Sequence record: CP053388.1
Reading direction: 5' to 3' (one strand)
DNA from: Escherichia phage CMS-2020a
Length of the DNA: 64,000 bases
Program-made: the position numbers and the translations under genes
The notes under the pieces: model-generated
The model's database searches: none
The model's input: only the letters and a program-made list of their open reading frames with translations
Told to the model about the DNA's origin: nothing
Part shown: piece after piece, positions 2,311-48,267 of the stretch
Layout of the letters: each line of letters opens with the position of its first letter
Numbering within the stretch: the stretch's first letter is position 1

Positions 2311-5300
2311 TTACATTTTTGCCTTCAGTTCGCGCACTTCCTCGCGCAGCTCTTTGACAGCCTCGACCAACATGCCGATAACGCCGTTGTAGTTAAGACG
2401 CAGACGAGGCTCTCCTGACTGATCGTTATGGTCAACCGTTACCAGTTCAGGCTGAACATTCTGGACGTCCTGAGCGATGAGGCCGCCAGACTGCTCATAC
2501 CGGTCACAGACCTGAATCTCGTACAGAACACCTTCGATCCGATCCAGCTTGTCGAGCGCTCGTTCAATCTTGCGAATATTGCGTTTGCTACGACGGTCAG
2601 AGCGGATATAAACGTCATTAAAGCTGCCATTACCGCCACAAACCCAAGTACCATCATTCTGGAGGTATGCGTTCGCATCCGTGCCGTTTGCGGTACGTGA
2701 GTTGTTGATCATGTAAAAACCAAACTGACTGTTTCCCAAGCCACCCAAGAAGAATTTGCGATCCGCGTGGTCTTGTCTCAACAACGCTTGTGCAGAGCTT
2801 GTACTTACAGCGTTCCTCCCGAAGATGACGTTCTGGTTACGCATATCTATCCACGCGCCAGAGCCGCTGTTGATGGAAAAACGGTTGGCGTAAACCCACG
2901 CACTTGACGTGATGTCACCCGTTACACTCAACGGCTTAAGGCTTTGCAGCGTGCTATTAACGAACCTAAAAACATGGGCGCTATTGGCGTAAACATCCAG
3001 AATGCCATCTCCGTTCTGTTTAAAGCCGGTGTCATTGTCACCCAGAACAATGGAATTACCGCCAAGAGCACTGGATGTACCGATGCCCAGTGCACCATTC
3101 AATTGACCTCCAGATAATGATAACGCCCCAACATCAGCAGCAGTCGGTTTAATGTGCGAACTGTAAATTACATATACAGTTCCATCTGTCAGGCCTGTTG
3201 GTTTATTCGCTGTATAAGTTGGTGATGTATGAATCGTTACGCTGGCGTTACTGGTATAATCCCACTGGATATTAACACCTGTGGCGTAATTACCTATTTC
3301 TACATAAATGTCATAGGTATCACCGGATGTATTCACCCATGCAAAATTAGTAAATCCAACCGAGGTCCGTCGCCATAATGCACCAGTAATACCTTTGGGG
3401 TTCCCATTTCCTGCACGCAGAACCAGCTCAGAGATGCCTGCTTGCTGCGGGGAGCCAACGTTAAACCCTGCGCCACCAATCAGGCTTATGTAAACCACGG
3501 AACTGGCTTGTGGCATGGTTACAGTTGCCAGCTTGAACCATCCGGCACCACCACTAAAAGACATTGTTGCTGAGTTGATCGTGCCTATAGACCTTGGAGT
3601 TAGCTCAATATTTTTAGAACCGTCAAACGACACCCCATTTATAGTTCTAGCGGTTTGTAACTTGGTCGCTGTCGCTGCATTACCGGTTGTGTTCTGGTTA
3701 CCAGCAATGTTTACACCCGGCAGGTTGATATTGGCGGAGCCATCGAATGACACGCCGCCTATTGTGCGTGCTGTTTGCAGTTTTGTTGCAGTTGCAGCAT
3801 TACCGTTCAAACTACCATTGATGCCGCCAGTAACATTGAGTCCATTACCGATCGTAACAGCACCGCTGGTATTATTAATTATAATAGGTCGCAAACCGTT
3901 CCATGAACCTAATGTGTCTCCTGATGCTGTTAGCATGAAATATGTGTTCGATCCATCATTACGGATAAAGAATCCATAGTTGCCATAGGCAATGCGCAGA
4001 CCATTCGCCGATTTTGAAATAATCTCGCCAGCAGCAGTTAATCCGCCAGTTAACGCTCCTCCAGAAAGCGATAATGCTCCTACATCAGAAGCTGTTGGTT
4101 TGTTTCTAGTGTTATAAGAACGACGCCAGCCTGGCGCGTAATCACTGCCATTGTACACATAAATAAATTCCGCATTGTTAACACCACCATGACCCGATGT
4201 TGTTGTCGTTGTAACACGAATAGTGTAGTGGCTTGTTGCCTTATTACTAAACACCTCAATCACGGAACCAGATAGATCGATCCTACCGCAACCAGTGTCG
4301 TCTATATAATTATTGTTGGCGTAAGTCCATGAGCACCGTGCGATCCAATGTTTGTTTGTAAATGCCCCCTGATTATTTAGCCAAGTTATAAATTGAGCAG
4401 TCGTAAATGCCGTTCCGTTACCACTATTTAACCATCCAGCGGCAGCGGTTGGCGCGTTTATATCAGCCGGCTGAGGCATAAATCCAGTCGTGTAAACCTG
4501 CTCCCAACCACTTTCAAAACCATAGCCATCTCTTGAGGAACGGTAGAACAGACCACCATTTTTATAGTGAGCTTTAATTTGAAGCGTACGGCAACTACCT
4601 AAACCGGTATAAAAGTTGGCAAGAATATAACTGTGGCCTGTTCTATTTACATTATAAGCACCAGATTCAGCATTCCACGGCACGCCACCATCAGCATCCG
4701 CATATGACCCTGTTGCCCTTCTTGCGAAAGCGGCAACATGCGCAGCGGTTAAAGTGATATCAGTAGAACCATCAAATGGAACACCGGATATTTTTCTTAC
4801 CGTCTGAAGTTTTGTAGCAGTTGCAGCATTACCAGTGGTGTTCTGATTACCCGTAGTGTTTACACCTGGAAGGTTAATATTTGCAGAACCGTCGAAAACA
4901 ACTCCACCGATAGATCTTGCCGTCTGCAATTTCGTGGCTGTACTTGCATTACCATTCAATGAACCAGTTAATCCACCTGTAACAGACAACGGACCTGAAA
5001 CTGTTCCTCCGGTTGTTGGCAGTGCTCCAATATCTAACGGCGTCGGTTTCTGATGTGTGCTATACATCGTATAAACAACACCATCGGTAACGCTGGAAGG
5101 CTTACTCGCTGAATATGTTGGCGATGTATAAATAGAAACTGTCGCATTTGCAGTACAATCCCAATGGATATTTACACGAGTCGCATAATTGCCAATCTCA
5201 ACGTAAATATCATATGTATCGCCGGATGTGTTGATCCAGGCGAAATTCGTTAACCCGACGGCTGTACGCTTCCACAAAGCCCCGGTAATTCCTTTGGGGT

Positions 5301-7041
5301 TTCCATTGCCTGCTCGTAGAACCAGTTCTGAAATGCCTGCCTGATGTGGGGAACCGACGTTGTAACCAGCGCCACCAATCAATGCGATGTAAACGATGGA
5401 ACTCGCTTGTGGCATGGTAACCGTAGCCAGTTTGAACCACCCAGCCCCGCCAGAGAAAGACATCGTTACTGAATTTAAAGTACCAATATCTTTCGGCGTT
5501 AATGTTATATCCGCAGTCAGTGCTTTTCCGTTAACTTTTCGGTTAGATGGCACCCTGCTATTCGCATTGTCATTGGCTGCTTTAACTGCTTTTGGCGTTG
5601 CGGCCAGCGATTCACTGGTGCTATCAACAGCACTGCTAAGTTTCACAACACCTTTAGTTGTAAGGCTTGCGTCTTCCATCGCAACTGCACCGGCAATCTC
5701 TTCAGCACGATCAGCAGCAGCTTCCGCACGGGTCGCAGCGGATTCAGCAGCAGTTTTGCTCTGAGATGCTGCCGTCGCACTGCCTGCCGCCTCTGTTGCT
5801 TTCGTGGATGCCGTCGTGGCGCTGCCCTTCGCTGCTGACGCCTGTCTGGTCGCCTCATCTTTTGAAGCAGACGCAGATGATGCCGATGACGCTGCCGAAC
5901 TGGCGGACGATGCGGCTGCCGTTTTTGAGGATTCTGCACGGGTTTCCGACGCTTTCGCGTTCGTTTCGGATGTCTTCGCTGCGGAAGCAGACCTCGCTGC
6001 TGCGCTGGCCTGTTCAGTGGCTTCGCCAGCCTTCGTTGTGGCTGTTGAAGCAGACGATGCGGCACTTTCTGCCGATTTTCCGGCGGCGGTGGCACTGGCT
6101 GAGGCCTGCCCGGCACTTGTTGACGCGGCACTGGCAGACGACGCAGCCGCTGTTTTTGAGCCTGCCGCAGCTGAGGCACTCTGTCCCGCTGCCGTTTCAG
6201 AAGACCTGGCGTTCGTCTCGGACGTTTTTGCCGCCTTCGCGGAATTGCCTGCCGCTGTTGCCGAGGAGGCTGCACTACTGGCGCTCGAGGCTGCGCTCGT
6301 TTCTGATGATTTTGCCGCCTCTTTTGAAGCCGACGCATCTCTGGCTGAGGTGGCAGCTTCTGACGCTTTCGTGGTCGCGGTGGATGCAGAAGTGGCTGCA
6401 GATTTTTGTGACGCTGCAGCATTCGTTTCAGATTTTTTCGCAGCAGTTGCACTCGCACTTGCGGCACTTTGTGAGGATGCCGCAGCGGATGCACTTTGAG
6501 ACGCTTGAGAGGCTTTTTCTCCAGCGATATTGGCGCTTTCTGCTGCTGCGGCAGCACTGGCCGCCGCCTCACGAGCTTTGTCGCCAGCAGCATCAATCGC
6601 GTCAGTGTTATTTTTATACCACTCAACGTTTTCGTTGTGCTCGTTGACGATCTGCATTAGCGGCTTAACGGTCACTTCTGTACCGTCTTCACGCTCGATT
6701 GTCACCTCATCCAGAGCAGTCAACCAACTGCGCATGGACTTGGAATCAGCCGACATACGCGACATTAGTGCTGTAAAGCGCGCGCTAAACTGTGTTAAGT
6801 CGCCTTCATAGGTCGTAATGATTCGGCACGGAACTTCAGACTGAGTTTCGCCGGTATAAGGTTCTGAGAGAACAATGTTCGTATCACTGGTTACGCGCTT
6901 GATCTCATACAGCTTATTGTCGGGGCCAATGACGATCATCCCCGGCAACACACCATTAGCTGTTACGTTCCAGGCTGTCCCTGCCCCAACCAGAGTATTG
7001 CTACCCTGTGTAAATGTGATAGTACCTTCCCTGTACCACAT
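2311..7041 (-). CDS. long tail fibre protein with Ala/Ser-rich stalk, duplicated receptor-binding-type modules and C-terminal intramolecular chaperone (S74-like) domain
   Basis: 1576 aa; repeated TIGGVxFDGSxNIxL and NAATATKLQTAR fibre repeats; two copies of the MSFSGGAGWFKLATVTMPQASS module; C-terminal SDRRSKRNI motif. Confidence 0.9.
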   Translation of the reverse strand: MWYREGTITFTQGSNTLVGAGTAWNVTANGVLPGMIVIGPDNKLYEIKRVTSDTNIVLSEPYTGETQSEVPCRIITTYEGDLTQFSARFTALMSRMSADSKSMRSWLTALDEVTIEREDGTEVTVKPLMQIVNEHNENVEWYKNNTDAIDAAGDKAREAAASAAAAAESANIAGEKASQASQSASAAASSQSAASASATAAKKSETNAAASQKSAATSASTATTKASEAATSARDASASKEAAKSSETSAASSASSAASSATAAGNSAKAAKTSETNARSSETAAGQSASAAAGSKTAAASSASAASTSAGQASASATAAGKSAESAASSASTATTKAGEATEQASAAARSASAAKTSETNAKASETRAESSKTAAASSASSAASSASSASASKDEATRQASAAKGSATTASTKATEAAGSATAASQSKTAAESAATRAEAAADRAEEIAGAVAMEDASLTTKGVVKLSSAVDSTSESLAATPKAVKAANDNANSRVPSNRKVNGKALTADITLTPKDIGTLNSVTMSFSGGAGWFKLATVTMPQASSIVYIALIGGAGYNVGSPHQAGISELVLRAGNGNPKGITGALWKRTAVGLTNFAWINTSGDTYDIYVEIGNYATRVNIHWDCTANATVSIYTSPTYSASKPSSVTDGVVYTMYSTHQKPTPLDIGALPTTGGTVSGPLSVTGGLTGSLNGNASTATKLQTARSIGGVVFDGSANINLPGVNTTGNQNTTGNAATATKLQTVRKISGVPFDGSTDITLTAAHVAAFARRATGSYADADGGVPWNAESGAYNVNRTGHSYILANFYTGLGSCRTLQIKAHYKNGGLFYRSSRDGYGFESGWEQVYTTGFMPQPADINAPTAAAGWLNSGNGTAFTTAQFITWLNNQGAFTNKHWIARCSWTYANNNYIDDTGCGRIDLSGSVIEVFSNKATSHYTIRVTTTTTSGHGGVNNAEFIYVYNGSDYAPGWRRSYNTRNKPTASDVGALSLSGGALTGGLTAAGEIISKSANGLRIAYGNYGFFIRNDGSNTYFMLTASGDTLGSWNGLRPIIINNTSGAVTIGNGLNVTGGINGSLNGNAATATKLQTARTIGGVSFDGSANINLPGVNIAGNQNTTGNAATATKLQTARTINGVSFDGSKNIELTPRSIGTINSATMSFSGGAGWFKLATVTMPQASSVVYISLIGGAGFNVGSPQQAGISELVLRAGNGNPKGITGALWRRTSVGFTNFAWVNTSGDTYDIYVEIGNYATGVNIQWDYTSNASVTIHTSPTYTANKPTGLTDGTVYVIYSSHIKPTAADVGALSLSGGQLNGALGIGTSSALGGNSIVLGDNDTGFKQNGDGILDVYANSAHVFRFVNSTLQSLKPLSVTGDITSSAWVYANRFSINSGSGAWIDMRNQNVIFGRNAVSTSSAQALLRQDHADRKFFLGGLGNSQFGFYMINNSRTANGTDANAYLQNDGTWVCGGNGSFNDVYIRSDRRSKRNIRKIERALDKLDRIEGVLYEIQVCDRYEQSGGLIAQDVQNVQPELVTVDHNDQSGEPRLRLNYNGVIGMLVEAVKELREEVRELKAKM
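3125..3840 (-). repeat. intragenic direct repeat block, copy 2 (module X2 plus fibre-repeat set 2) within tail fibre gene
   Basis: About 80-85% nucleotide identity to 4760-5470; antisense ORFs at 3515 and 5414 start with the same MVTVASLNHPAPP peptide. Confidence 0.75.
4760..5470 (-). repeat. intragenic direct repeat block, copy 1 (module X1 plus fibre-repeat set 1) within tail fibre gene
   Basis: Paralogous to 3125-3840 (offsets about 1.15 and 1.9 kb for the two sub-modules). Confidence 0.75.
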
Positions 7042-7134: not shown

Positions 7135-10100
7135 TCACAGACGGCCAATTCTTACTCGTAAGACGTTGTTATCGTCATAAACGTCAATCCGCTGACCATT
7201 TATAACCAATCGCCCATTGCCGCCGCTATTACCGTTGATCTCAAGCGTTCCATTTTTGCCGAACCGCCATCCAGATCTACCGCTAACAAAATTGGTAGAT
7301 TGCAGATCGCCTACTTTTGCATTGGTGATTGTGCCATCCTTGATATACGCTCCATTCATATAGGCGATACTGTTTTCGATAACAAATGGCGTTGTGATCT
7401 TCCCGTTAACAGAGTTGACCAAACCAAACCTGTCAGCCTGCACCAAAAACTGAGAAAGGCCAGTGGTGTCGATACCAAGCGCAATACCAGCAACATACTT
7501 CTGCCCTCCGCTCGTTGAAGTTTCCATTTTCAACGTCCACGCGGTTGACACTTTTTTGTTGGTATCAGCAATAGCTGTTGCCTGCTGTTGAATTGTCGCG
7601 GTATTTCCATCCACCTCTGCTTTCAGAGTATCGATTCGCCCACTCAGAGCATTATCTGCCTGCGTTCTCGCTGTCGTTTCAGTTGTTACCGCCGCGGAAA
7701 TGTTGGCTGCCGTTTGAGACTCTAAGTTTGTGATTTGAGTCGCCAATGCGGCATCTTGCTCTGTACGCGTTTTCGTTTCGGTTGCTACAGCCGCTTTAAT
7801 ATCCTCTTTGTATTGAGAGGTCAGCTTGGTGATCTGAGACGACAACGCCGAGTCAGCATCAGTTCGAGCCTGCGTTTCAACTGCAACGGCCGCACTAATA
7901 TCTTTCGCTGTCTGTGCTTTTAAACTTGAAACCTCTTTTGTTAAAGCGGTATCACCATCTGCACGAGCCGTTGTTTCTCTGGCAAGAGACGCCTCGAGAT
8001 CATTAGCTTTTGCTGTAAGAGACGTAATCTGGGTAGACAATGCACTATCGGCATCAGTCCTTGCTTTTGTCTCTACAGCAACCGCTGCGGCAATATCAGT
8101 TCCGGTTTGTGCTCGCAGGCTGTTAATTTCTCGTGAGAGCGCCTGGTCAGCACTTGCCCTGGCCTCCTGCTCCTGAGTGATGGCAGCGGATATATCACCG
8201 TCAACCTTTGACTGAAGCTGGTTTATTTGTTTGGCTAACGCAGAGTCCCCGCTTGCTCGAGCCTCCTGCTCACTACGTATTGCAGCAGAAATATCATCAT
8301 CAACCTTTGCCTGAAGTTGGGTGATCTGGCTTGCCAGAGCCGAATCTTCCGTTGCTCGGGCTTCTTGCTCTTCCTTAATAGCTGCGACGATATCGTTGCT
8401 TACTTTCGACTCAAGCTGAGTGATCTGTGTCGTCAGAGCTTCATCGGCAGATGTACGAGCCTCCTGCTCTGTACTAATCGCCGCGCTGATATCTCCTTCA
8501 AACTTAGATTGCAGCTGAGTGACACGCTTTGCCAACGCTTCATCGCCATCGGCACGAGCGGTGGACTCTTCCAGAATACTGGCCTTAATGTCTTCGCCAA
8601 TTTCTACGCGAATTTCCTCAACCTTCGTGGCTATTGCAGACATATCATCAGCAAAGGTTTTCTGTGTTGTTGCGATCTTCGCGTTATTGACCATCTGCTT
8701 GTGCTGGTCTTCATCTTGACGAAGAGCCAGGTCAATATTTGTTTTGGCTAACGCCTCAATGTTCGTAGTCAGTTCTGCACTGGCACGATCGACCTCTGCA
8801 ACCGTCTTTTTCATTTCTTCAACGGCAGCGGAGCTTTCCTCTACCGTTGACTGCAACACTTCCAGTTGTTTAGCGTTTGCAGCATCGCCTTCAACACGAG
8901 CCTCGCTTTCCTTAGCAATAAGAGCCGCCGCTTCATCTCTTGCAGCCTTTATTGCCTCGACTGTATTAGCGAGAGCTTTATCGTGTTCAGATACGGTGTT
9001 TTCGATTTCAACAATTGCAGCATCAGTAGCATCAATTTTTTCAAACGCTTCATTGACCTTGTCAATCGTTGCCGAAACCTCACCTTTAAGCTCGGTTTGT
9101 GCGTTCTCCAAAGCATCGCTACGCTCGTTGAATTTTATTTCAAAATCCGCGAGGTTATCGCTGAACTGCTTATCTAATTCAGCTATATCTTCCTTAACGT
9201 CGTTTACCGCCCCCTCCAAAGATTCGACGCTCTGGTTGATATGCTCATTTAACTCGTCAACTGCTTCTTGAGAGGCTTTGCTGTTGATGTCCTCAAGCAG
9301 AGCCTGACCAAGCTCGGAAGATGTAATTTTGCCAGTCAGGAACGACAGTACATCGCGAGTTGTCGCCTCTGTACCCAAGTTTGAGTTCGGAGGACTTAAC
9401 ATACCTCGCTTGTTCGATGCTCGAACCCAGTAATACCACGTTTCGCTATCCCCAAGACCAGCATGTGTAAAGGTGGTGCTTGCAGACTCTGCGATCAGTT
9501 TCGCCGTATCCAGATTGTTGGTCTGGGATGCGTAAACATTAATGTGATCAAGGTCTACCGAATCTGGATTAACCCAATTCAGTATCACATTACGATAGTC
9601 TCCAACGGCCGTTAATGACGTTGGGGAATCCGGCGGTGTCATTGTGCCCAACACCTGATAAACGGTACTGATAATCTCTGTTTTTTTACCGTTGAATGAA
9701 ACCGCATACAGCTGGAAGTCGTAGCGTCCATTCTCCGCGACATTAACGATTTCGTATTGCTCTTCGGTTACACGCGCCGATTGCCAGTTCGATACATTGT
9801 TTTCATCAGAACGTCGCCAACTGATCCAATACTCTGGAGATTTCCCTTCCCATGTTGCAGTCAGTTTTACTGACAGGTTGCCAGGGCTTGAGAGATAAGT
9901 CCCTTCGGTGATTTGCAAATTAGACGGCTTGGAGTAAGTCGGGTCCAATACCGTCGTATTCTGCGGGATAAGCGTTGCACCATTGTCGATTGCCTCATAT
10001 TTAGACGGATTGTTCTCAACAGCGGTGATGTCAAAGCTACCCGGCGTTTCCCCCTGCGCGATGTTAACGATGCGAACGCGCATAGGTTCGAGATCTGGTT

Positions 10101-11868
10101 CTGTAATTGTCCAGACACCGTTCAAAACAGGCGTTTCCGCTGACGACAGGGCTTTTGAAAACGTAACCTTTGTTATGTTTTCGCCAGTTTCAAGAACATC
10201 GCGTTCAACGATTTTGCCTTCCTGATTCAGTATTCGAATAAAGCAGCCGCCTTTGGCTAACGACACCGGCGCATCGAGTGTGACGCTGTTTTTGGTAAAC
10301 GCCACAATTCGACCTGAGTTACGTTTGCCTGCGCGATATTTGTTCTGAATCAGAACGGTTTCACCAGGCATCAGAAATGACGCGTCTAAGCCGGCAGTAA
10401 ATGTAATTACATCCGACTCCATTCTGGCGGTATATAAAAGCCACAAACCAACTCGGTGAGCCTGCCCTCGGCTTGTACAGCCAAATGCTACGACTTCTGT
10501 CTTACGCTCACCATAACGGCGCATTGCGTCCTGATCTTCAACGTACTCGATGTTTTGCTTATAACCGTCCTCCTTGTTGTTGTAGGTTACGAGCGCAACG
10601 GATGGGCGATCTTTACGCGCAGAACCTTTATAGGTAAACAATCCATCTTTGACGTTAGAGTTGGTAAACATCATTACCGGATCTGATGGGCTATCCTGCA
10701 TGATGTTAACCATGCCACCAGCCCAAAACACCATACCGCGGAATGCACCGGCAATATCCTGAATTAATCGGTATGCGTCCTGTCGACTGGTGATCTGCGT
10801 ATTGATTGCAAAGCGTTTCTCTTTACCACCAAAGCCATCATCAACCTCTTCGTCACAATATCGACCGATCTGGTATAGCTGGCCGAGGTCAATCATAGAT
10901 TCCGACACATACTGACCAAGGCCATATCGAGCATTGGTAAGCAAATCAAAGAGAATCCACGCGGGGTTTGAAGAAGACAACAGCTTAAAAGTGCCATCCC
11001 ATACACCATCATAAGTGTTGCTGGCCTCGTTGTAGTTTGACGGCACGCGAATTTTTAATCCACGTACCAAATACGAACGAGATGGCATGGTGCTACCAAA
11101 CTGCTCAGAATTAACCTTCAGACCCACCAGCACAGAGTTTGGGTAGTTCATCGGTGTATCTACAATCTCACCTATTGAGTCCACCCATGTATCGTTATAG
11201 AGATACTGGCTGCTGTTATCATCGGTAATACGGACTACACGAACCTTGTACGCGCGTCCAGGCTTAGGCAGCTTCAGCTCATAGCTACGGTAATAAACAC
11301 CTGTCTTCTTTGCTGTTAGCTTAATGCCAACGCTTTTTTCACCTTCTGCGACCACATCTACAAATGTTGAGTCGCCATTTGCTATCTGGAACTTGTACTC
11401 AACGGTTGTACCGTTCGTGTCACCAGTTTTTTTATCTATGCTTCGCAAAGAAGGAAACTTCATGATGACACGAACCCGATCAGCTTCATCGTTATCGATT
11501 GAAACCGTTACATAATGTGTTTTTTTTAACTGGATATTGACGGATTTAGGCGTTTCAACGAAATCAAAGCCAGACATTGGAGTCTGGTCTTGCGAACCGT
11601 CGCGAAAATCCCATGTGATTCCGCTGAAGTTGGAGGAACCGTCTTCATTTACAATCGGCAGATCGTCGACAAAAATAGATCTTGCGCCATTTACCAAGCC
11701 GCCAATTACACCTTCCCCAAGAAGATCGAGGATAGCGGCCATTGCACGAGAATTTACGGTATCGTCGGCTTCAACCGGTGTACGGCTAGAGCTTTTGCTG
11801 CTTTTTTTACCACCCGCACCTGCAATAAACAGCGGTAACTTTTTCTTCTTGAACTGTTCCATGTTCAA
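7135..11868 (-). CDS. tail tip / host specificity protein (lambda J-like) with inserted coiled-coil repeat stalk
   Basis: 1577 aa; N-terminal region alignable to lambda J; about 10 tandem ~37-aa repeats of the ITQLxSKVxxDIxAAIxxEQEARxxxDxAL type. Confidence 0.9.
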   Translation of the reverse strand: MNMEQFKKKKLPLFIAGAGGKKSSKSSSRTPVEADDTVNSRAMAAILDLLGEGVIGGLVNGARSIFVDDLPIVNEDGSSNFSGITWDFRDGSQDQTPMSGFDFVETPKSVNIQLKKTHYVTVSIDNDEADRVRVIMKFPSLRSIDKKTGDTNGTTVEYKFQIANGDSTFVDVVAEGEKSVGIKLTAKKTGVYYRSYELKLPKPGRAYKVRVVRITDDNSSQYLYNDTWVDSIGEIVDTPMNYPNSVLVGLKVNSEQFGSTMPSRSYLVRGLKIRVPSNYNEASNTYDGVWDGTFKLLSSSNPAWILFDLLTNARYGLGQYVSESMIDLGQLYQIGRYCDEEVDDGFGGKEKRFAINTQITSRQDAYRLIQDIAGAFRGMVFWAGGMVNIMQDSPSDPVMMFTNSNVKDGLFTYKGSARKDRPSVALVTYNNKEDGYKQNIEYVEDQDAMRRYGERKTEVVAFGCTSRGQAHRVGLWLLYTARMESDVITFTAGLDASFLMPGETVLIQNKYRAGKRNSGRIVAFTKNSVTLDAPVSLAKGGCFIRILNQEGKIVERDVLETGENITKVTFSKALSSAETPVLNGVWTITEPDLEPMRVRIVNIAQGETPGSFDITAVENNPSKYEAIDNGATLIPQNTTVLDPTYSKPSNLQITEGTYLSSPGNLSVKLTATWEGKSPEYWISWRRSDENNVSNWQSARVTEEQYEIVNVAENGRYDFQLYAVSFNGKKTEIISTVYQVLGTMTPPDSPTSLTAVGDYRNVILNWVNPDSVDLDHINVYASQTNNLDTAKLIAESASTTFTHAGLGDSETWYYWVRASNKRGMLSPPNSNLGTEATTRDVLSFLTGKITSSELGQALLEDINSKASQEAVDELNEHINQSVESLEGAVNDVKEDIAELDKQFSDNLADFEIKFNERSDALENAQTELKGEVSATIDKVNEAFEKIDATDAAIVEIENTVSEHDKALANTVEAIKAARDEAAALIAKESEARVEGDAANAKQLEVLQSTVEESSAAVEEMKKTVAEVDRASAELTTNIEALAKTNIDLALRQDEDQHKQMVNNAKIATTQKTFADDMSAIATKVEEIRVEIGEDIKASILEESTARADGDEALAKRVTQLQSKFEGDISAAISTEQEARTSADEALTTQITQLESKVSNDIVAAIKEEQEARATEDSALASQITQLQAKVDDDISAAIRSEQEARASGDSALAKQINQLQSKVDGDISAAITQEQEARASADQALSREINSLRAQTGTDIAAAVAVETKARTDADSALSTQITSLTAKANDLEASLARETTARADGDTALTKEVSSLKAQTAKDISAAVAVETQARTDADSALSSQITKLTSQYKEDIKAAVATETKTRTEQDAALATQITNLESQTAANISAAVTTETTARTQADNALSGRIDTLKAEVDGNTATIQQQATAIADTNKKVSTAWTLKMETSTSGGQKYVAGIALGIDTTGLSQFLVQADRFGLVNSVNGKITTPFVIENSIAYMNGAYIKDGTITNAKVGDLQSTNFVSGRSGWRFGKNGTLEINGNSGGNGRLVINGQRIDVYDDNNVLRVRIGRL
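7670..8750 (-). repeat. tandem ~111-bp coding repeats (coiled-coil heptad array) inside J-like gene
   Basis: Repeating gcctcctgctc... units visible in DNA; protein repeats EQEARA(S/T)xDxAL. Confidence 0.7.
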
Positions 11869-11880
11869 AAAAATCCTTGT

Positions 11881-12474
11881 TTACATTAGCTGGTCAATCG
11901 TGATTGAAGAACTCACAACCTGTGAGCCAACCAGAATTTCCTCGCCATAGATAAGTTGTACTGGGTTGCCCTGGTTTTCTGTATTTTGAGGGCCGTCGAA
12001 ATAATAAGAGTTCGAGTTATCTGCCTGTCTCACACTTTCGTTAGTGGCTTGCGGCGATATGATTTGTGATATGCCGCCCATCATCAGTGACAAACCGAGA
12101 GGTGCTAAAGCAGGCATCACTACCGCCGATACAACCAACAAAGCGGCCCCTACTACCGTCTGAAACCACCCAAAAGCAGATCCACCGCTTCCTCGCGGAA
12201 CAGGTGTAATGCGGATTTTGGCAATGTTGTCAGACTGCCCCATCATCTGATATTCACTTTCGTCAACAGACCACTTGTGGCCCTGTTTATTGGTGATCTG
12301 GATGTGGTAACGGTCATAGGTTTTGATATTGCGCTTCATCCATGCTTTAAACCCAGGCTTGTTGGCCTCAATTAAATCCAGAGCCTGTTTTGTATTGCGC
12401 ACCTTTAGATGCCAGTGGCGGCCAAAATGTTTGGCCATAGGGCCGCCAAGCTGCACATGAACTAACTCAGACAC
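11881..12474 (-). CDS. tail assembly protein (lambda I-like)
   Basis: 197 aa, C-terminal hydrophobic Gly-rich segment; position between K and J. Confidence 0.75.
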   Translation of the reverse strand: MSELVHVQLGGPMAKHFGRHWHLKVRNTKQALDLIEANKPGFKAWMKRNIKTYDRYHIQITNKQGHKWSVDESEYQMMGQSDNIAKIRITPVPRGSGGSAFGWFQTVVGAALLVVSAVVMPALAPLGLSLMMGGISQIISPQATNESVRQADNSNSYYFDGPQNTENQGNPVQLIYGEEILVGSQVVSSSITIDQLM

Positions 12475-17400: not shown

Positions 17401-19000
17401 TCCCTGCTCGCATCAGTTTGAACGCAACCATCGCGGCCACGACCTTACCGAGATTAATTACCAGCTCTTGGTTCTTTGCTAACCATTGAGCAAGCTGACG
17501 CAACCCATCGATTGCCGTTGTTAACCCCGAACCTAAAGAATTGGCAAACGAAATCCCTTCGGCGCTATTCATGATTGAAGCCAGTTCTTTCATCCCCTTC
17601 GATAGAGAATCCAGATATCCGGCCTGACCAACCCGATCAGCAAATAACGTGAATGACGTCTGAAGTTGCGCCAGCGCACCTGTGTAGGTTTGCATCATGT
17701 CTTTCGCTGCGTTCTCATTCTCCGCACGCAGACCAACAAACATCAGAGACAACGCCTGTTTTGCCTCAACCGTACCGCTGGCAACGGCTTTAGTCAGTTC
17801 CCCCATAGTGATGCCTGCGGCGTCTGCCATTGCCTGCATCGCGTTAGGAACGGCTTCACCTAATTGCTGACGTAGCTCTTCCATTGACACGACGCCCTTA
17901 CCGGACATCTGCTGAACGGCCACAGCCGCACGTTTCAACAGCTCACTATCACCACCAAAACGAGCAACGGAGTCCACCAGCGCCTTCAGAGAGCCATCGG
18001 TTGGATCTAAGCCAGCAGAACGAAACTTCACGAAGGAATCTGTTAACGCCTGCATCGCGAACGGCGCATTTTGAGCCATGTCTACGATGTACTTCATGTC
18101 ATCGGCGGCAGCCTGGCCAGGGTTAGACTTCTCCTTATTCAACCCACGAAGCATCACCCGCATACGTTCCATTTCGGCCGCAGCTTCAACAATAGGCTTC
18201 TGCCATCCAAACATGATGTCAGTAACCGTTCTGGCTGCATCTCCGATCTCGCCAAGCAGGAAAATGTTGCCACGAAGGCCAGAGAACATACCTCCTTCGT
18301 TACTTTTACCGCTATGGCCAGAGCCGCTACGCCGCCCGCTGCCACCATCGCCACTTCCAGATGTACGAACGCGTACCGGCTTGCTAATCAGTTGCTGACG
18401 TCCGATAACTTCGTCCATCTGCTCACGAACCTTTTTCAGTCCCTCGGCAGCCTGACTCGTTGTGACACCCCAATTACTGAGTCGCTTCGTCGTGGTATTA
18501 AGGCGCGTATTCATGCCACTCACGGACGCAGAGGCTTCTTTGACCTCCGTACCAAAGCGGCTTGCGCTTTTGCTTGCATAGGTCGCCCAATCAGAGAAAT
18601 CATTTAGCTCTGATTGCACTTTACGTAATGACGCGGTGAGTTTATCTACTGAAGAAGTTGTCGTATCGACGCGCTCAATCAGGGCTTTAAGACCAGAATT
18701 GAGGCTGGTGATGTTGCCACGCATTTTACGCGTAGCATCTGAAGCAAGCTCAAAACCGGCAGCTACATCCTGTAGTTTATCTGCCGTAGAATCGAGCTTG
18801 CTTTCCAGAACGCCAATGATACGGGCGACCGAACCCAAAGAGCGTTCAAAGGTTTGGATTTTTTGAGCAGGCTTTGTTACCTGCTCACCAAATCGAGTAA
18901 GCAGTTTCCCCGCACGATCGATTGACGCTGTAAACTGTTTGTCTTCCAGCGACAGGATAAACTCTACGTTTTGTGACATTCCCTTGTCATCCTCTGCCAA
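14411..19000 (-). CDS. tail tape measure protein
   Basis: 1529 aa, extended helical/coiled-coil composition with hydrophobic central segments; follows G/GT chaperones. Confidence 0.9.
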   Translation of the reverse strand: MAEDDKGMSQNVEFILSLEDKQFTASIDRAGKLLTRFGEQVTKPAQKIQTFERSLGSVARIIGVLESKLDSTADKLQDVAAGFELASDATRKMRGNITSLNSGLKALIERVDTTTSSVDKLTASLRKVQSELNDFSDWATYASKSASRFGTEVKEASASVSGMNTRLNTTTKRLSNWGVTTSQAAEGLKKVREQMDEVIGRQQLISKPVRVRTSGSGDGGSGRRSGSGHSGKSNEGGMFSGLRGNIFLLGEIGDAARTVTDIMFGWQKPIVEAAAEMERMRVMLRGLNKEKSNPGQAAADDMKYIVDMAQNAPFAMQALTDSFVKFRSAGLDPTDGSLKALVDSVARFGGDSELLKRAAVAVQQMSGKGVVSMEELRQQLGEAVPNAMQAMADAAGITMGELTKAVASGTVEAKQALSLMFVGLRAENENAAKDMMQTYTGALAQLQTSFTLFADRVGQAGYLDSLSKGMKELASIMNSAEGISFANSLGSGLTTAIDGLRQLAQWLAKNQELVINLGKVVAAMVAFKLMRAGIMGVVGAGSQMVSTFATMATAIQTPFNLGATAVTRFNRAARMGLAPIPSLIFAIRGAITGLKGAFAGLTAFIAANPIGAAFTVATVAVAGLITYMTMLRSETSKVVDEIRKIPEAMTAAKRAQMADRAEKLEKQILADQRALKTGEGVNYVSNSAGVITHKESKADIEARLKKNQEEYQKITGTIALGDGAVAKRLAKEAAESQIEKIRAENQIFAATFVKARQEALDKIQKINDDGSLSDDEKNKLLAPLRETVNKSYLEPAQKLVDSLSSRKNATEKQIATLNDQLEKAKKDGNTEQIQKLQGSIRGYQEHLEAVAQELTQAEFERDNAAKTGKGVMSNQGTVLGLGTTDKAAQKALAQYMRNQMDSATYQRTLPDGTPMMDFEGKPIIGPKQLKTQLNLQKASSASSLEKMSDEERAAAIAALTKAREQDAAAAEKAAQRSANASQRAAKKEQAAQQKLAAGYQKALDKADQLMGQMGESSKATVSFDQSLRDTTKSLTDLANAVPNEFITQEMIDKAKKRLEDLKNATPEYREMFNRRNVEQMISTWAPEADSIISAGYTPSREEKVADFEDTYNRNLKALIELRDKASDPKVVALYTKKINQLIAAGNTALIKETGTATQKLALEYENLAEQIESTWTDLFSGLTDVLTDFVINGKMSFSSLSQSILKDITNMVVKSQITLPLMNMLGMGTTAAGSSQSGNLLTGVASAVANQGVRMGNTVNGDKSVGEATKETSSSVTGLGQTTQQTTSAIGTATNAIGSWVSGLFDSTEAKDAETKAVKDSIFSMQNLSSVTGALSAAFAMLGANASGSGNKWLNFGATVASGLVSVWAGGGFDGLMSGSSGSTSGFNNLTSSAADGTNGIPAIPKFANGGIFGKDGVIPLRAYQKGGIANSPQLALFGEGDMNEAYVPLPDGRTIPVTLSTDGMSGGGNVLSPVSIEINVHSDGSTTESGDTESIWNNAAQRMKAIALETIAQEKRPGGSLNPNTQRN

Positions 19001-40164: not shown

Positions 40165-40476
40165 TCAGGCTATTGCCATCACTGATGCTCTCTGAATCTC
40201 TTGCTGGGCCACGCGGTTAACTTCCATCAAAGCCAGTTCGAGCTGATGTTCCGGCCACATTCTTTGAAATGCCACCCAGCCTTTTCCACGCTGGCGACGA
40301 ACATTCATTACATAACGAGTAAAGGTGTTTTTATCGAAAGACACCGCTGTTTCACGGAACAGACGAATAGAGGTTCCATTGGCAACGATGTCCAGCAAAG
40401 TTAATTGAGCAACCAGCGCAGGCTTCTCTTTTCTCTTCTGGTCTTTGTCCAGACCAAGAACCAATGATTTTTTCAT
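40165..40476 (-). CDS. hypothetical protein
   Basis: Start MKKSLVLG with GGAG RBS. Confidence 0.5.
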   Translation of the reverse strand: MKKSLVLGLDKDQKRKEKPALVAQLTLLDIVANGTSIRLFRETAVSFDKNTFTRYVMNVRRQRGKGWVAFQRMWPEHQLELALMEVNRVAQQEIQRASVMAIA

Positions 40477-43753: not shown

Positions 43754-45787
43754 TTACTTAACTTGGTGGCCTGGTTTAGCACCAGCATCCGGGCTTAACA
43801 GGAAGATATCTTTTCCGCCAGGGCCAGCAGCCATCACCATGCCTTCGGAGATACCGAAGCGCATTTTACGCGGTGCCAGGTTAGCCACCATAATGGTGTG
43901 ACGACCAATCAGTGCCTGTGGATCTGGATAAGCGGAACGAATGCCTGAGAAGACATTACGTTTTTCTCCGCCGAGATCCAGTGTCAGGCGCAGCAGTTTG
44001 TCAGAACCTTCGACAAACTCCGCGTTTTCAATCAGCGCCACACGCAGGTCAACTTTGGCGAAGTCGTCAAAGGTGATGGTTTCCTGAATCGGGGCGTCAG
44101 CCAGTGGGCCAGTTACCGGTGCAGCTGTGGCTTTCACTTCTTCTTTGGATGCTTCCACCAGTGCTTCCACCTGTTTCATATCGATACGGTTATACAGTGC
44201 CTTGAACGGATTCACTTTATGGCCCAGCAGCGGTTGCTGGATACCATCCCAGGTCAGTTCTGTATTCAGGAATGCTTCTGCACGTTCAGTCAGTTTCGGC
44301 AGTACCGGTTTCAGGTACGTCATCAGCACGCGGAACAGGTTAATGCCCATAGAGCAAATCGCCTGCAGATCGGCATCGCGTCCTTCCTGCTTCGCCACCA
44401 CCCACGGAGCCTGTTCATCAACATAGCGGTTAGCCAGGTCAGCCAGTGCCATGATTTCACGGATAGCTTTGCCAAATTCGCGGCTTTCCCATGCTTCGCC
44501 AATCACTTCAGCGGCATCAGTAAAGGTTTTGTACAGTTGCGGGTCAGCCAGTTCGCTTGCCAGCACGCCGTCAAAACGCTTGTTGATAAAGCCTGCATTA
44601 CGGGAGGCCAGGTTAACCACTTTGTTCACGATATCGGCATTCACGCGCTGAACGAAATCTTCCAGGTTGAGATCGATATCATCAATGCGCGAAGAGAGTT
44701 TCGCAGTGTAGTAGTAACGCAGGCTGTCGGCGTCAAAATGATTCAGCCAGGTGCTGGCTTTAATAAAGGTGCCGCGAGACTTGGACATCTTCGCACCGTT
44801 CACCGTCACATAGCCATGAACAAACAGGTTGGTCGGCTTGCGGAAGTTGCTGCCTTCTAGCATGGCAGGCCAGAACAGGCTGTGGAAGTAAACGATATCT
44901 TTGCCGATGAAGTGGTACAGCTCGGCGGTGGAGTCTTTCTTCCAGTATTCGTCGAAGCTGGTAGTGTCGCCGCGTTTGTCGCACAGATTCTTGAAGGAAC
45001 CCATGTAGCCAATCGGCGCGTCCAGCCAGACGTAGAAGTATTTGCCCGGTGCGTTCGGAATTTCAAAACCGAAGTAAGGTGCGTCACGGGAGATATCCCA
45101 CTGTTGCAGGCCAGATTCAAACCACTCCTGCATTTTGTTTGCCACCTGCTCCTGCAACGCACCGCTGCGGGTCCATGCCTGCAACATTTCGCTGAAAGAA
45201 GGCAGATCAAAGAAGAAGTGTTCGGAATCACGCATTACCGGTGTAGCGCCAGAAACTACCGATTTCGGCTCGATCAGTTCCGTCGGGCTGTATGTCGCGC
45301 CGCAGACTTCACAGTTATCGCCGTATTGATCCGGCGCTTTACATTTCGGGCATGTGCCTTTTACAAAACGGTCCGGCAGGAACATGCCTTTTTCCGGGTC
45401 GTACAGCTGAGAGATGGTGCGGTTTTTAATAAAACCGTTCTCTTTCAGGCGAGTGTAGATAAGCTCGGACAACTGACGGTTCTCTTCGCTGTGCGTCGAG
45501 TGATAGTTGTCATAGCTGATGTTAAAGCCTGCGAAATCAGTCTGATGTTCCTGACTCATTTCGCCAATCATCTGCTCCGGTGTGATACCAAGCTGCTGTG
45601 CTTTCAGCATGATCGGCGTACCGTGGGCATCGTCGGCACAGATGAAATTAACCTCGTGGCCGCGCATTCGCTGGTAACGAACCCAGACATCAGCCTGGAT
45701 GTGCTCCAGCATATGGCCGAGGTGGATTGAGCCGTTAGCGTACGGCAGCGCGCACGTCACCAGAATTTTCTTCGCGACTTGGGTCAT
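43754..45787 (-). CDS. metG: methionyl-tRNA synthetase
   Basis: Start [25 protein letters not shown] (HIGH motif), KMSKS motif, C-terminal tRNA-binding domain; matches enterobacterial MetG as recalled from memory. Confidence 0.97.
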
Positions 45788-45944
45788 AGTAGGCATTACT
45801 TCTTTGTAGTGAAAAGGGGCTTGATAGTAACAAAATGGCCTTATGTCTGCCATGTGATAACAGCATTTCTCATAAATGATTAAATGTCGTAGCTGGAGTA
45901 CACTACAAGGCGACAATTGCGCAAATTAAAATAAAGGAGACGGG

Positions 45945-47045
45945 ATGAGCGAGTCCAAATCGCCGGATGCCCTGAGAGCAATGGTAGCCGGTACGCTGGC
46001 TAATTTTCAGCACCCAACCCTGAAACACAACCTGACTACGCTTAAAGCGTTACACCATGTTGCGTTGATGGATGACACACTGCATGTCGAACTAATCATG
46101 CCTTTCGTGTGGAATAAGCCTTTTGAAGACCTGAAAGAGCAATGTAGTGGTGATCTGCTCCGTATCACTGGCGCAAAGGCTATTGACTGGAAGCTGTCGT
46201 ACAACATTGCCACGCTTAAGCGTGTCAAAAACCAACCAGGCATTAATGGCGTTAAGAACATTATCGCCGTCAGCTCAGGCAAGGGCGGCGTGGGTAAATC
46301 CTCCACGGCGGTAAACCTGGCACTGGCGTTGGCTGCTGAAGGTGCGAAAGTTGGTATTTTGGATGCCGATATCTATGGTCCATCAATTCCAACCATGCTG
46401 GGCGCGGAAAACCAACGTCCAACCTCACCTGACGGTACTCACATGGCACCTATCATGTCTCATGGCCTGGCAACCAACTCTATTGGTTATCTGGTCACCG
46501 ACGACAATGCAATGGTGTGGCGTGGACCGATGGCCAGCAAGGCGCTGATGCAGATGTTGCAGGAAACATTGTGGCCTGATCTGGACTATCTTGTTCTCGA
46601 TATGCCGCCGGGCACTGGTGATATTCAGTTGACGCTGGCGCAGAACATTCCTGTAACTGGTGCTGTTGTGGTAACTACGCCGCAAGACATCGCGCTGATC
46701 GATGCGAAGAAAGGCATTGTGATGTTCGAAAAAGTCGAAGTGCCGGTACTGGGTATCGTTGAAAACATGAGTGTGCATATTTGCAGTAACTGCGGTCATC
46801 ACGAGCCAATTTTTGGCACCGGTGGCGCACAGAAACTGGCCGAGAAATACAACACGCAGTTGTTAGGCCAAATGCCACTTCATATCTCTCTTCGTGAAGA
46901 TCTGGATAACGGAACACCAACCGTTATTAGTCGTCCAGATAGCGAATTTACAGCTATTTATCGTGACCTCGCAGATCGCGTTGCCGCCCAAATGTATTGG
47001 CAAGGTGAAGTAATACCTGGCGAAATCGCATTCCGCGCAGTGTGA
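45945..47045 (+). CDS. apbC: Fe-S cluster carrier ATPase ApbC/Mrp
   Basis: P-loop SGKGGVGKSS and CxxC motif; divergent from metG with AAGGAG RBS, the native enterobacterial arrangement. Confidence 0.95.
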   Translation: MSESKSPDALRAMVAGTLANFQHPTLKHNLTTLKALHHVALMDDTLHVELIMPFVWNKPFEDLKEQCSGDLLRITGAKAIDWKLSYNIATLKRVKNQPGINGVKNIIAVSSGKGGVGKSSTAVNLALALAAEGAKVGILDADIYGPSIPTMLGAENQRPTSPDGTHMAPIMSHGLATNSIGYLVTDDNAMVWRGPMASKALMQMLQETLWPDLDYLVLDMPPGTGDIQLTLAQNIPVTGAVVVTTPQDIALIDAKKGIVMFEKVEVPVLGIVENMSVHICSNCGHHEPIFGTGGAQKLAEKYNTQLLGQMPLHISLREDLDNGTPTVISRPDSEFTAIYRDLADRVAAQMYWQGEVIPGEIAFRAV

Positions 47046-47072
47046 TAAAAAGGCGGTGCATTGCACCGCCTA
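47046..47072. terminator. hairpin terminator at the apbC / UmuD'-like junction
   Basis: aaaaa + ggcggtgcattgcaccgcc; U-tract is on the minus-strand side. Confidence 0.55.
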
Positions 47073-47082
47073 ATCAGTTCTC

Positions 47083-47472
47083 CTACATCACGGGACAATC
47101 ATCAAACTCGCCACTTCTTGCGTCGTTGATAATGTGAGTGATCACACCAAACACGGCATTGCTGCCCGTGCATCCATCGTCATCCTTTGGCAATGCTTCC
47201 TTCTTACCGGTTCTTAAATCCTCCAGATGCTGACGTGGGTACTTCCGGTATCTTTTTACGCGATATTCCCCATCCAGAGCGCATACAAGCAGAGAACCAT
47301 CAACCGGGGTAAGTGAGGAATCGACCACCAGCAATGCACCCTGTAATATTCCCTCACGATGATGACTATCAGCTGCCCTCATGAAGTAGGTCGCTGAAGG
47401 ATGTCTAATTATCTGCTGATCAAGAGAAATACGGCTCTCAACATAATCCGCCGCAGGAGAAGGGAAGCCCAT
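47083..47472 (-). CDS. UmuD'-like S24 peptidase-family protein (N-terminally pre-truncated, HumD-like)
   Basis: GFPSPAADYVESRISLDQQIIRHPSATYF aligns with UmuD from its autocleavage-site region onward; no umuC. Confidence 0.85.
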   Translation of the reverse strand: MGFPSPAADYVESRISLDQQIIRHPSATYFMRAADSHHREGILQGALLVVDSSLTPVDGSLLVCALDGEYRVKRYRKYPRQHLEDLRTGKKEALPKDDDGCTGSNAVFGVITHIINDARSGEFDDCPVM

Positions 47473-47488
47473 AATACTCGCCTCTTAA

Positions 47489-47508
47489 TACTGTATACAC
47501 ATACAGTA
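47489..47508. promoter_or_regulatory. LexA (SOS) box overlapping the UmuD'-like promoter
   Basis: tactgtatacacatacagta = CTGT-N8-ACAG; -35 TTCAAA and -10 TATACT on minus strand. Confidence 0.85.
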
Positions 47509-47803
47509 TATATTGAAGCTATATATTTTTGAACTCTATCTCTTAAAAAAGATGTTAATAAGATGCTAACTATTGAAAGGCATAAATATATACAATTCAA
47601 ACAAACGTTATTTTTAACAAATTTTTTCTTCCCATTGACTTTTTCGAACGCCTTGTCCGGTCTAAAGTGCGCAGAAGTCACTTTTTCCTTCCTGAGTTAT
47701 CCACAGGCTTATGCACTTGCATGAAAAATCTATTCACACTATCTTAATTCGCAAGACACTGATGTTGCAGTATTGAGGGTATGTTGGGTTAAAAATAGAC
47801 ATT

Positions 47804-47836
47804 AAAAAGCCCAGTTGACTAGGCTGGGCTTTTTAA
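47804..47836. terminator. bidirectional terminator hairpin
   Basis: aaaaagcccagttgactaggctgggcttttt. Confidence 0.65.
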
Positions 47837-48229
47837 AAGGAAACAGAGTTTGCGGCTCTGTTCCTGAGCCATAAGTATCTGGCGACTGAGCTAAGATTAA
47901 CCGAATGTACTGGATTCATCAAGAAACGTTGAGTGGTCATACTAGGTAATAATGACCATTTACTAAACATCGTTGTTCTCAAAGAAGATTTAAGTCCAGG
48001 TTTTTGGTGACTCTAAAACCTTACCTTAACTCGAAATCGTGCCGTAAGTATCTGGCGACTACAGATATTGCAACTGCAAAGGCAAGCTCAAAGGTATTTG
48101 CAGCTAGGTGCGATAAAACTAAGTGAGGCCTATAGTGCTTAACTTACTTTTCAAAATCGTGCCGCCTATGTTCGCAATCATCGAAGCGATCATTGAGTAC
48201 GTCAACCAGCGCCCATAATGCTAGTTGTT

Positions 48230-48257
48230 ACCGGCCCCATCCAAATGGGGCCATTTT
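48230..48257 (+). terminator. plus-strand rho-independent terminator
   Basis: ggccccatccaaatggggcc followed by atttt. Confidence 0.55.
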
Positions 48258-48267
48258 ATTGTATTGA

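Follow-up and report, generated by a model that had tools for sequence, protein, structure and literature searches.

A humD gene encoding a ready-made UmuD′-like protein, preceded by a near-consensus LexA box, in Escherichia phage CMS-2020a

The UmuD protein of Escherichia coli is cut between Cys24 and Gly25 in a RecA-dependent reaction, and Gly25 is the first residue after the cut; the processed form, UmuD′, is a subunit of the error-prone DNA polymerase V. Bacteriophage P1 encodes a relative, HumD, which, in work by McLenigan and colleagues from 1999, is reportedly able to complement UmuD′ and to bind UmuC and RecA filaments. According to the P1 sequence record (AF234172), HumD 'functionally complements E. 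coli UmuD'', and the record marks a 'LexA binding site in the regulatory region of lxr and humD'. The humD gene has been listed as a LexA-regulated SOS gene (PMC9603915), and other mobile elements carry UmuD homologues under SOS control in the form of mucAB, impAB, samAB and rumAB (PMC11541004). The latter specify both a UmuD-like protein that is full-length and cleavable and a UmuC-like polymerase of their own, whereas the locus described here, in Escherichia phage CMS-2020a, has neither the cleavable N-terminal arm nor the polymerase. We analysed a stretch of 64,000 nucleotides (nt) of this phage (sequence record CP053388.1; hereafter the window) and propose that it probably carries a stand-alone, LexA-repressed humD gene for ready-made UmuD′, as an operator-plus-gene unit of ~430 bp on an SSU5/pHCM2-like phage-plasmid. 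The gene and its control elements are as follows.

47083..47472, minus strand: humD coding sequence, assigned from the open reading frame (ORF), the NCBIfam HumD, Pfam Peptidase_S24 and PHROG 811 matches, identity to P1 and P7, structure matches and the ratio of non-synonymous to synonymous divergence (dN/dS)
47481..47486, minus strand: Shine-Dalgarno sequence AAGAGG, 8 nt before the humD ATG, read from the sequence
47489..47508, no strand assigned: LexA (SOS) box, TACTGTATACACATACAGTA, which reads TACTGTATGTGTATACAGTA on the gene strand; 18 of 20 positions match the consensus
47505..47533, minus strand: sigma-70 promoter-like sequence TTCAAA-17-TATACT from a consensus scan, 9 of 12 matches; a prediction only

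The humD ORF starts with ATG and encodes 129 amino acids plus a stop codon (translation MGFPSPAADYVE...). A longer product is impossible: 4 codons 5′ of the ATG stands an in-frame TAA, and the 4 codons in between include no ATG, GTG or TTG. A vestigial N-terminal arm upstream of the ATG was considered and rejected, as the tblastn alignment of UmuD runs on into the promoter here and crosses the stop codon, with almost no identities in this part. After the initiator Met, the humD product begins at the residue that matches UmuD Gly25 (Gly2 is aligned with Gly25), and no cleavable Ala/Cys-Gly bond was found in an N-terminal segment, the protein beginning at the Gly itself. Since Gly is the next residue, removal of the initiator Met is expected by the usual rule of N-terminal processing, and the N-terminus of mature HumD would therefore equal that of UmuD′. 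Hundreds of full-length relatives begin at the identical position.

Over its full length, residues 1-129 on profile positions 1-129, the product scores 221.7 bits on the NCBIfam equivalog model NF051876 (HumD family translesion DNA polymerase), whose cutoff is 120. It also matches Pfam Peptidase_S24 (PF00717; 38 bits, cutoff 23.3) and PHROG 811 ('UmuD-like'), while its score against the model of the UmuD subfamily (NCBIfam NF007621/PRK10276) is 88 bits, below the cutoff of 110. Its identity is 99% to the HumD of phage Cyrano, 92-93% to those of P1 and P7, 91.5% to that of D6 and 65-72% to N15 gp26, phiKO2 gp23 (69-72% for these two) and the HK140/HK639 proteins. Identity to E. coli UmuD is 39-45% (39% with E = 6e-27 when aligned to UmuD directly), true similarity extending from UmuD Gly25 on. 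The HumD family profile matches the structure of UmuD′ (PDB 1UMU) with E = 1.3e-26, profile positions 2-118 corresponding to chain residues 1-114. For structure comparison we used an AlphaFold (AF2) model built on a diverse alignment (mean predicted local distance difference test score, pLDDT, 72.1) and not the version built on 95 close homologues (mean 43.7); the top PDB matches of this model in Foldseek were 8gmt, 1umu, 1ay9 and 1i4v, all UmuD or UmuD′, followed by C-terminal domains of LexA. By these comparisons the gene is an ordinary copy of the already described humD. Both the gene and its arrangement are already known, and on near-identical plasmids RefSeq names the product 'HumD family translesion DNA polymerase' or 'S24 family peptidase'. 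A PADLOC scan gave no defence-system match for HumD or for the two genes upstream.

The LexA box ends 16 nt 5′ of the humD ATG. It has the features of an E. coli-type operator, CTGT-N8-ACAG with an AT-rich spacer and close agreement with the 20-mer consensus, both mismatches being central. It is the sole site in the window with three or fewer mismatches to the consensus, and no such site arose in any of 100 dinucleotide-preserving shuffles. The window holds only one other CTGT-N8-ACAG, at 40347-40362 (CTGTTTCACGGAACAG), which agrees with the consensus at 9 of 20 positions, has a GC-rich spacer and is probably a chance occurrence. The predicted −35 (TTCAAA, 47533-47528) and −10 (TATACT, 47510-47505) elements are separated by 17 nt, and the last 4 bases of the −10, part of a promoter known from its consensus match only, fall within the LexA box.

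Conservation of the operator was followed in 160 related loci taken from viral and genome collections, of which 117 are of the pre-truncated (HumD) type. All HumD-type loci that are at least 90% identical have a perfect CTGT-N8-ACAG at −34 to −37. Within 120 nt of the gene, the perfect core was present in 79 of the 117 loci, and 17 further loci had 7 of its 8 bases. With 58 distinct upstream sequences anchored on this core, agreement with the LexA consensus is 88-100% at the box positions that had no part in the selection, and the information in the columns 5′ of the box is about 1 bit or lower. This pattern supports, though, the sequences being related, it does not prove, that the humD operator is under constraint. 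In most of the arm-bearing, full-length UmuD loci of the same set, the box lies ~30 nt before their own start.

The closest described system is P1 HumD (AAQ14073), which has the same length of 129 amino acids, the same M-G-F-P-S start and the same C-terminal tail, and which is likewise encoded on a plasmid prophage without umuC. The outer half-sites of the two LexA boxes are identical, and the 5 differences between them all fall in the central spacer; the P1 site lies 20 bp before the P1 humD ATG, compared with 16 nt here. DNA homology between the window and P1 extends from ~10 bp before the box to the stop codon, so that the shared unit is the operator plus the gene, about 430 bp. The two genes differ at 49% of synonymous sites (pS = 0.49) and at 3.7% of non-synonymous sites, giving dN/dS = 0.048. 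humD is therefore under strong purifying selection and functional. As synonymous sites are ~49% diverged, the gene is not a recent copy of P1 humD, and the SSU5-type and P1-type copies appear to have separated long ago.

The surroundings of the two genes differ. P1 is a myovirus, whereas the present element would be an SSU5/pHCM2-like siphovirus phage-plasmid. In P1, humD has the divergent gene lxr upstream and phd-doc downstream, whereas here it is flanked by a 760-bp AT-rich spacer and an apbC-metG pair, and no homologue of P1 Lxr, the product of the divergent LexA-regulated neighbour, was found in the window. The promoter-like site here is nearer to consensus than anything beside the P1 box. 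Similar operator-plus-humD units are present in P1, P7, D6, N15 and many prophages. The UmuD-like genes of N15 (gp26), phiKO2 (gp23) and HK140/HK639 are also pre-truncated; they share the tail and are placed in the manner of morons, and the LexA box of N15 lies at −34. HK140 differs in that its HumD-like gene is the second of a two-gene unit, behind an ORF of 79 amino acids (locus L169, 1910-2890), and its LexA box lies in an intergenic region shared with the divergent dinI, next to attP, which places two SOS modulators at one operator region. Compared with E. coli UmuD′ (1UMU, 1AY9, 1I4V), HumD has the same fold, first residue, Ser and Lys positions and, by prediction, LexA control. However, UmuD′ is made by cleavage, whereas HumD is made directly, without the arm, the cleavage site or the arm's partner-binding sites; it also has ADSH for GDSM and ~10 extra C-terminal residues, and forms no operon with umuC.

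A tblastn search of the window with E. coli UmuC found no umuC (best E = 0.27), and the annotation of the entire 109-kb plasmid NZ_LR882992.1, which is 99.9% identical, includes no Y-family polymerase. The same holds for the family: umuC is missing within 3 kb in 116 of the 117 HumD-type loci, whereas it is nearly always directly downstream in arm-bearing, full-length UmuD loci. The sole umuC-partnered locus among the 117 is that of Cedecea sp. S5-13 (NZ_JBHIKW010000004.1; locus L113, 3001-4654), where a full-length umuC, whose product is 84% identical to E. coli UmuC, begins 8 nt after a HumD-type gene with a MAFPS start, an EFDDNPCM tail and a LexA box at −35. This pair shows that the HumD type is a natural partner of UmuC. 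In its anatomy, the locus in the window is what the sequence-only reading had described: a gene for a pre-truncated, 129-residue UmuD′-like protein homologous to P1 HumD, under a near-consensus SOS box that overlaps the −10 TATACT, and not followed by umuC.

The basis of our proposal, namely the identity and anatomy of the gene, the conservation of its operator, purifying selection and the absence of umuC, is observed, and the following course of events may be built on it. In an undamaged cell, host LexA would sit on the box that overlaps the −10 and the start region, keeping humD off. Upon DNA damage, LexA cleavage induced by activated RecA (RecA*) would derepress humD. Its product, once the initiator Met is removed, would start at the same Gly as RecA-processed UmuD′ and would need no activation step. 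If its abilities to complement UmuD′ and to bind UmuC and RecA filaments carry over from P1 HumD, the HumD dimer would bind host-encoded UmuC and, with RecA-ATP, form a translesion enzyme resembling polymerase V. The slow processing of UmuD to UmuD′ would thereby be bypassed, and replication of the damaged element, or of damaged host DNA, would be helped; this would presumably be the benefit of humD to the element.

Several points weigh against this account. About one fifth to one third of the HumD-type loci have no good box within 120 nt, and some HumD-type genes follow a small ORF whose promoter holds the box, as in HK140. In the AT-rich stretch before humD, 3 promoter-like sites were found where 3.4 were expected, which is not above chance; the promoter prediction is weak, being favoured by position and not by score, and LexA would be expected to bind the box at 47489-47508 from its sequence. 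P1 HumD is reportedly poorly expressed and, in the same work of McLenigan and colleagues from 1999, is said to have complemented well only from a high-copy plasmid, so that a physiological share of HumD in translesion synthesis is unproven. Finally, the conserved C-terminal tail of HumD, described below, has no part in a model in which the protein acts simply as UmuD′.

Other functions can be considered for the product. The sequence-only reading had suggested that a phage-supplied UmuD′ could modulate host translesion synthesis or serve as an induction sensor; the former agrees with the published function of P1 HumD, and the latter found no support, as the protein lacks the cleavable arm by which S24 proteins sense RecA* and its catalytic dyad is decaying in the pre-truncated lineage. 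HumD might be an active S24 protease or damage sensor, which would cut UmuD, LexA or a phage repressor in trans, or report RecA*. Both catalytic residues are indeed present in this copy, Ser36 (47365-47367) corresponding to UmuD Ser60 and Lys73 (47254-47256) to UmuD Lys97, and the Lys is kept in 164 of 179 distinct HumD-family sequences that made up our set of close relatives (Arg in 8, Met in 3, Ser in 1). However, in the same set the Ser position holds Ser in 108 sequences and Thr (65), Met (3) or Ala (2) in 70, so the site, although intact here, is not maintained in the family. The GDSM motif of UmuD, which reads ADSH in the humD product, is gone in the 179 relatives. A second count, on representatives at 50% identity, compared pre-truncated with arm-bearing proteins: the pre-truncated ones are variable at the Ser position (S7, T7, A3, H2, G2 and others) and at the Lys position (K13, R8, C3, V2, I1), whereas the arm-bearing ones keep Ser in 32 of 35, Lys in 32 of 35 and the adjacent Met in 31 of 35. 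The dyad is thus intact here but decaying across the pre-truncated relatives, as for a catalytic site that is no longer selected. Such decay is expected for a protein that never cuts itself, HumD having no cleavable arm, and argues against a trans-protease or RecA*-sensor role; on these family-level residue counts we rejected both, and consider them highly improbable. Even less credible is the notion that humD is a decaying remnant of umuDC after loss of the 5′ end and of umuC. Only its outward anatomy, that of a shortened umuD without umuC, suggests this, but the gene has an ATG, a Shine-Dalgarno sequence, an operator and a terminator of its own, its dN/dS is 0.048, and it has a family-specific tail and hundreds of full-length relatives with the same start. 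The selection and conservation data refute the idea of a pseudogene or remnant.

HumD could also act as a brake, binding host UmuC, UmuD or RecA filaments and so damping mutagenesis or recombination, or shifting the timing of the SOS response in favour of the element. UmuD′2C is an inhibitor of RecA-mediated recombination, and the cell targets UmuD/UmuD′ heterodimers for degradation; the shared UmuD′ fold and N-terminus of HumD imply the same partners, and a humD-type gene stands beside the SOS modulator gene dinI in some phages, for example HK140. However, P1 HumD, according to the note in AF234172 and reportedly also to the 1999 work of McLenigan and colleagues, restores mutagenesis and UV survival and does not suppress them, and in the Cedecea genome a gene of the HumD type takes the place of umuD in a umuC operon. 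We therefore regard a brake as unlikely. Somewhat better placed, though still doubtful, is the possibility that HumD is mainly a docking or decoy protein, a role that would add to, or replace, that of a simple UmuD′. It is suggested by the C-terminal tail, with which the product runs ~10 residues (SGEFDDCPVM) beyond the end of UmuD. This family-specific extension ends EFDDCPV[MI]; the columns of its last eight residues, 122-129 of the product (EFDDCPVM, window 47083-47106), are 84-98% conserved in the 179 distinct members and are among the most conserved HumD positions (E 174, F 173, D 175, D 168, C 152, P 174, V 160, M/I/L 172). The tail is also present at loci L113, L115-L117 and L121, with variants such as EFDDIPVI, EFDDTPF and EFDDNPCM, and EFHDNLPF and EFDEIPCI in distant representatives. 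It is specific to pre-truncated forms, being found in at least 6 of the 18 classified and in none of 43 arm-bearing UmuD-type representatives. Of 6346 ORFs in all DNA examined, which is a small background and not a proteome, the motif terminates 118, all of them HumD. Nothing corresponds to the tail in the solved UmuD′ chains, and its residues 123-129 have pLDDT below 50 in the AF2 model, that is, they are predicted to be disordered, and the tail is therefore not docked on the core in the model.

An acidic stretch followed by Pro and a hydrophobic C-terminal residue recalls the C-terminal tip of SSB, the protein that binds single-stranded DNA and that in E. coli ends MDFDDDIPF. The hexapeptide DDDIPF is a protein-interaction hub (PMC5872125; PMC9565051). 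A disordered acidic tail imitating this tip (DDDIPF-COOH) might recruit the HumD dimer to the usual binding partners of SSB or compete with SSB for these partners, and the variants EFDDTPF, EFDDIPVI and EFHDNLPF are nearer to it than the common form. On the other side, the likeness is that of a short acidic motif, the Pro is off by one position, most members end in Met or Ile and not Phe, and the background set of ORFs is small. We thus put forward only tentatively that [DE]-F-D-D-x-P-x-[MILF]-COOH is a mimic of the SSB tip, which might serve as a docking handle for the SSB network or UmuC in place of the absent, partner-binding N-terminal arm. A literature search found no paper mentioning the HumD tail or mimicry of the SSB C-terminus by phage proteins.

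As a finding, the preferred reading, a stand-alone LexA-repressed gene for ready-made UmuD′, adds little, since P1 humD and its LexA site were described more than 20 years ago. The presence of the unit in unrelated phage-plasmid lineages (P1, N15 and SSU5-like) and in prophages, together with purifying selection, argues that a ready-made UmuD′ is useful to temperate elements. The conserved tail is the sole part that could open a new question; if the resemblance to the SSB tip is real, the tail would point to a new way in which factors for translesion synthesis are brought to DNA damage.

Both E. coli plasmids of 106-111 kb and Escherichia phage Cyrano share 99.7-99.9% identity with the region, and the window runs colinear with plasmid NZ_LR882992.1 over positions 34222-97670 of the latter. 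From the annotated gene content of this plasmid we infer that the element is an SSU5/pHCM2-like phage-plasmid: the annotation includes a RepB replication protein, partition genes and siphovirus-type head and tail genes, as well as the element's own DnaE, DnaB-like helicase, primase, ligase, RecA, NrdAB and ThyA. A literature search for SSU5 in connection with UmuD found nothing relevant. The element's own RecA and DnaE homologues are encoded outside the window, at 4413-5486 and 8463-11981 of NZ_LR882992.1. Activated polymerase V comprises three protein types, and with HumD and RecA the element encodes two of them, the UmuD′ and RecA types, and not UmuC. Another good LexA box (CACTGTATAAGTAAACAGTA, 16 of 20 consensus positions) lies at 17674-17693 of the same plasmid, ~27 bp 5′ of a tyrosine recombinase/integrase gene and adjoining a gene for a helix-turn-helix regulator; it may give the element a second SOS input.

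Two predicted hairpins bracket humD and its upstream region.

47051..47071, minus strand: intrinsic-terminator-like hairpin of 9 pairs, 7 of them G-C, followed by TTTTAT, 11 nt past the humD stop codon
47802..47836, no strand assigned: perfect 13-nt inverted repeat, TTAAAAAGCCCAG / CTGGGCTTTTTAA, with T runs flanking it on both strands

The hairpin at 47051..47071 faces the convergent apbC gene. That at 47802-47836 resembles a bidirectional terminator and would insulate humD from the leftward operon upstream. The spacer 5′ of humD (47510-48267; 760 bp, 38% G+C) contains no ORF longer than 53 amino acids. It holds a 20-nt direct repeat (47868-47887 and 48041-48060, 95% identical), and no match to Rfam at gathering thresholds was found across the whole window, this spacer included.

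On the other side of humD, at 43754-47045, lies the divergent pair of metG (methionyl-tRNA synthetase) and apbC/mrp, arranged as on the E. coli chromosome. The pair has ~90% DNA identity to the chromosome, is present at 223 plasmid places in complete E. coli genomes, and looks like a captured host segment. In a sister plasmid, pR9-658-1 (locus L001, 10497-13281), an ISEcp1-blaCTX-M-15 unit is inserted within a block of Ea22/Eaa-like genes just 5′ of humD, at a place that corresponds to ~2 kb upstream of humD in the window. The stretch upstream of humD therefore accepts cargo.

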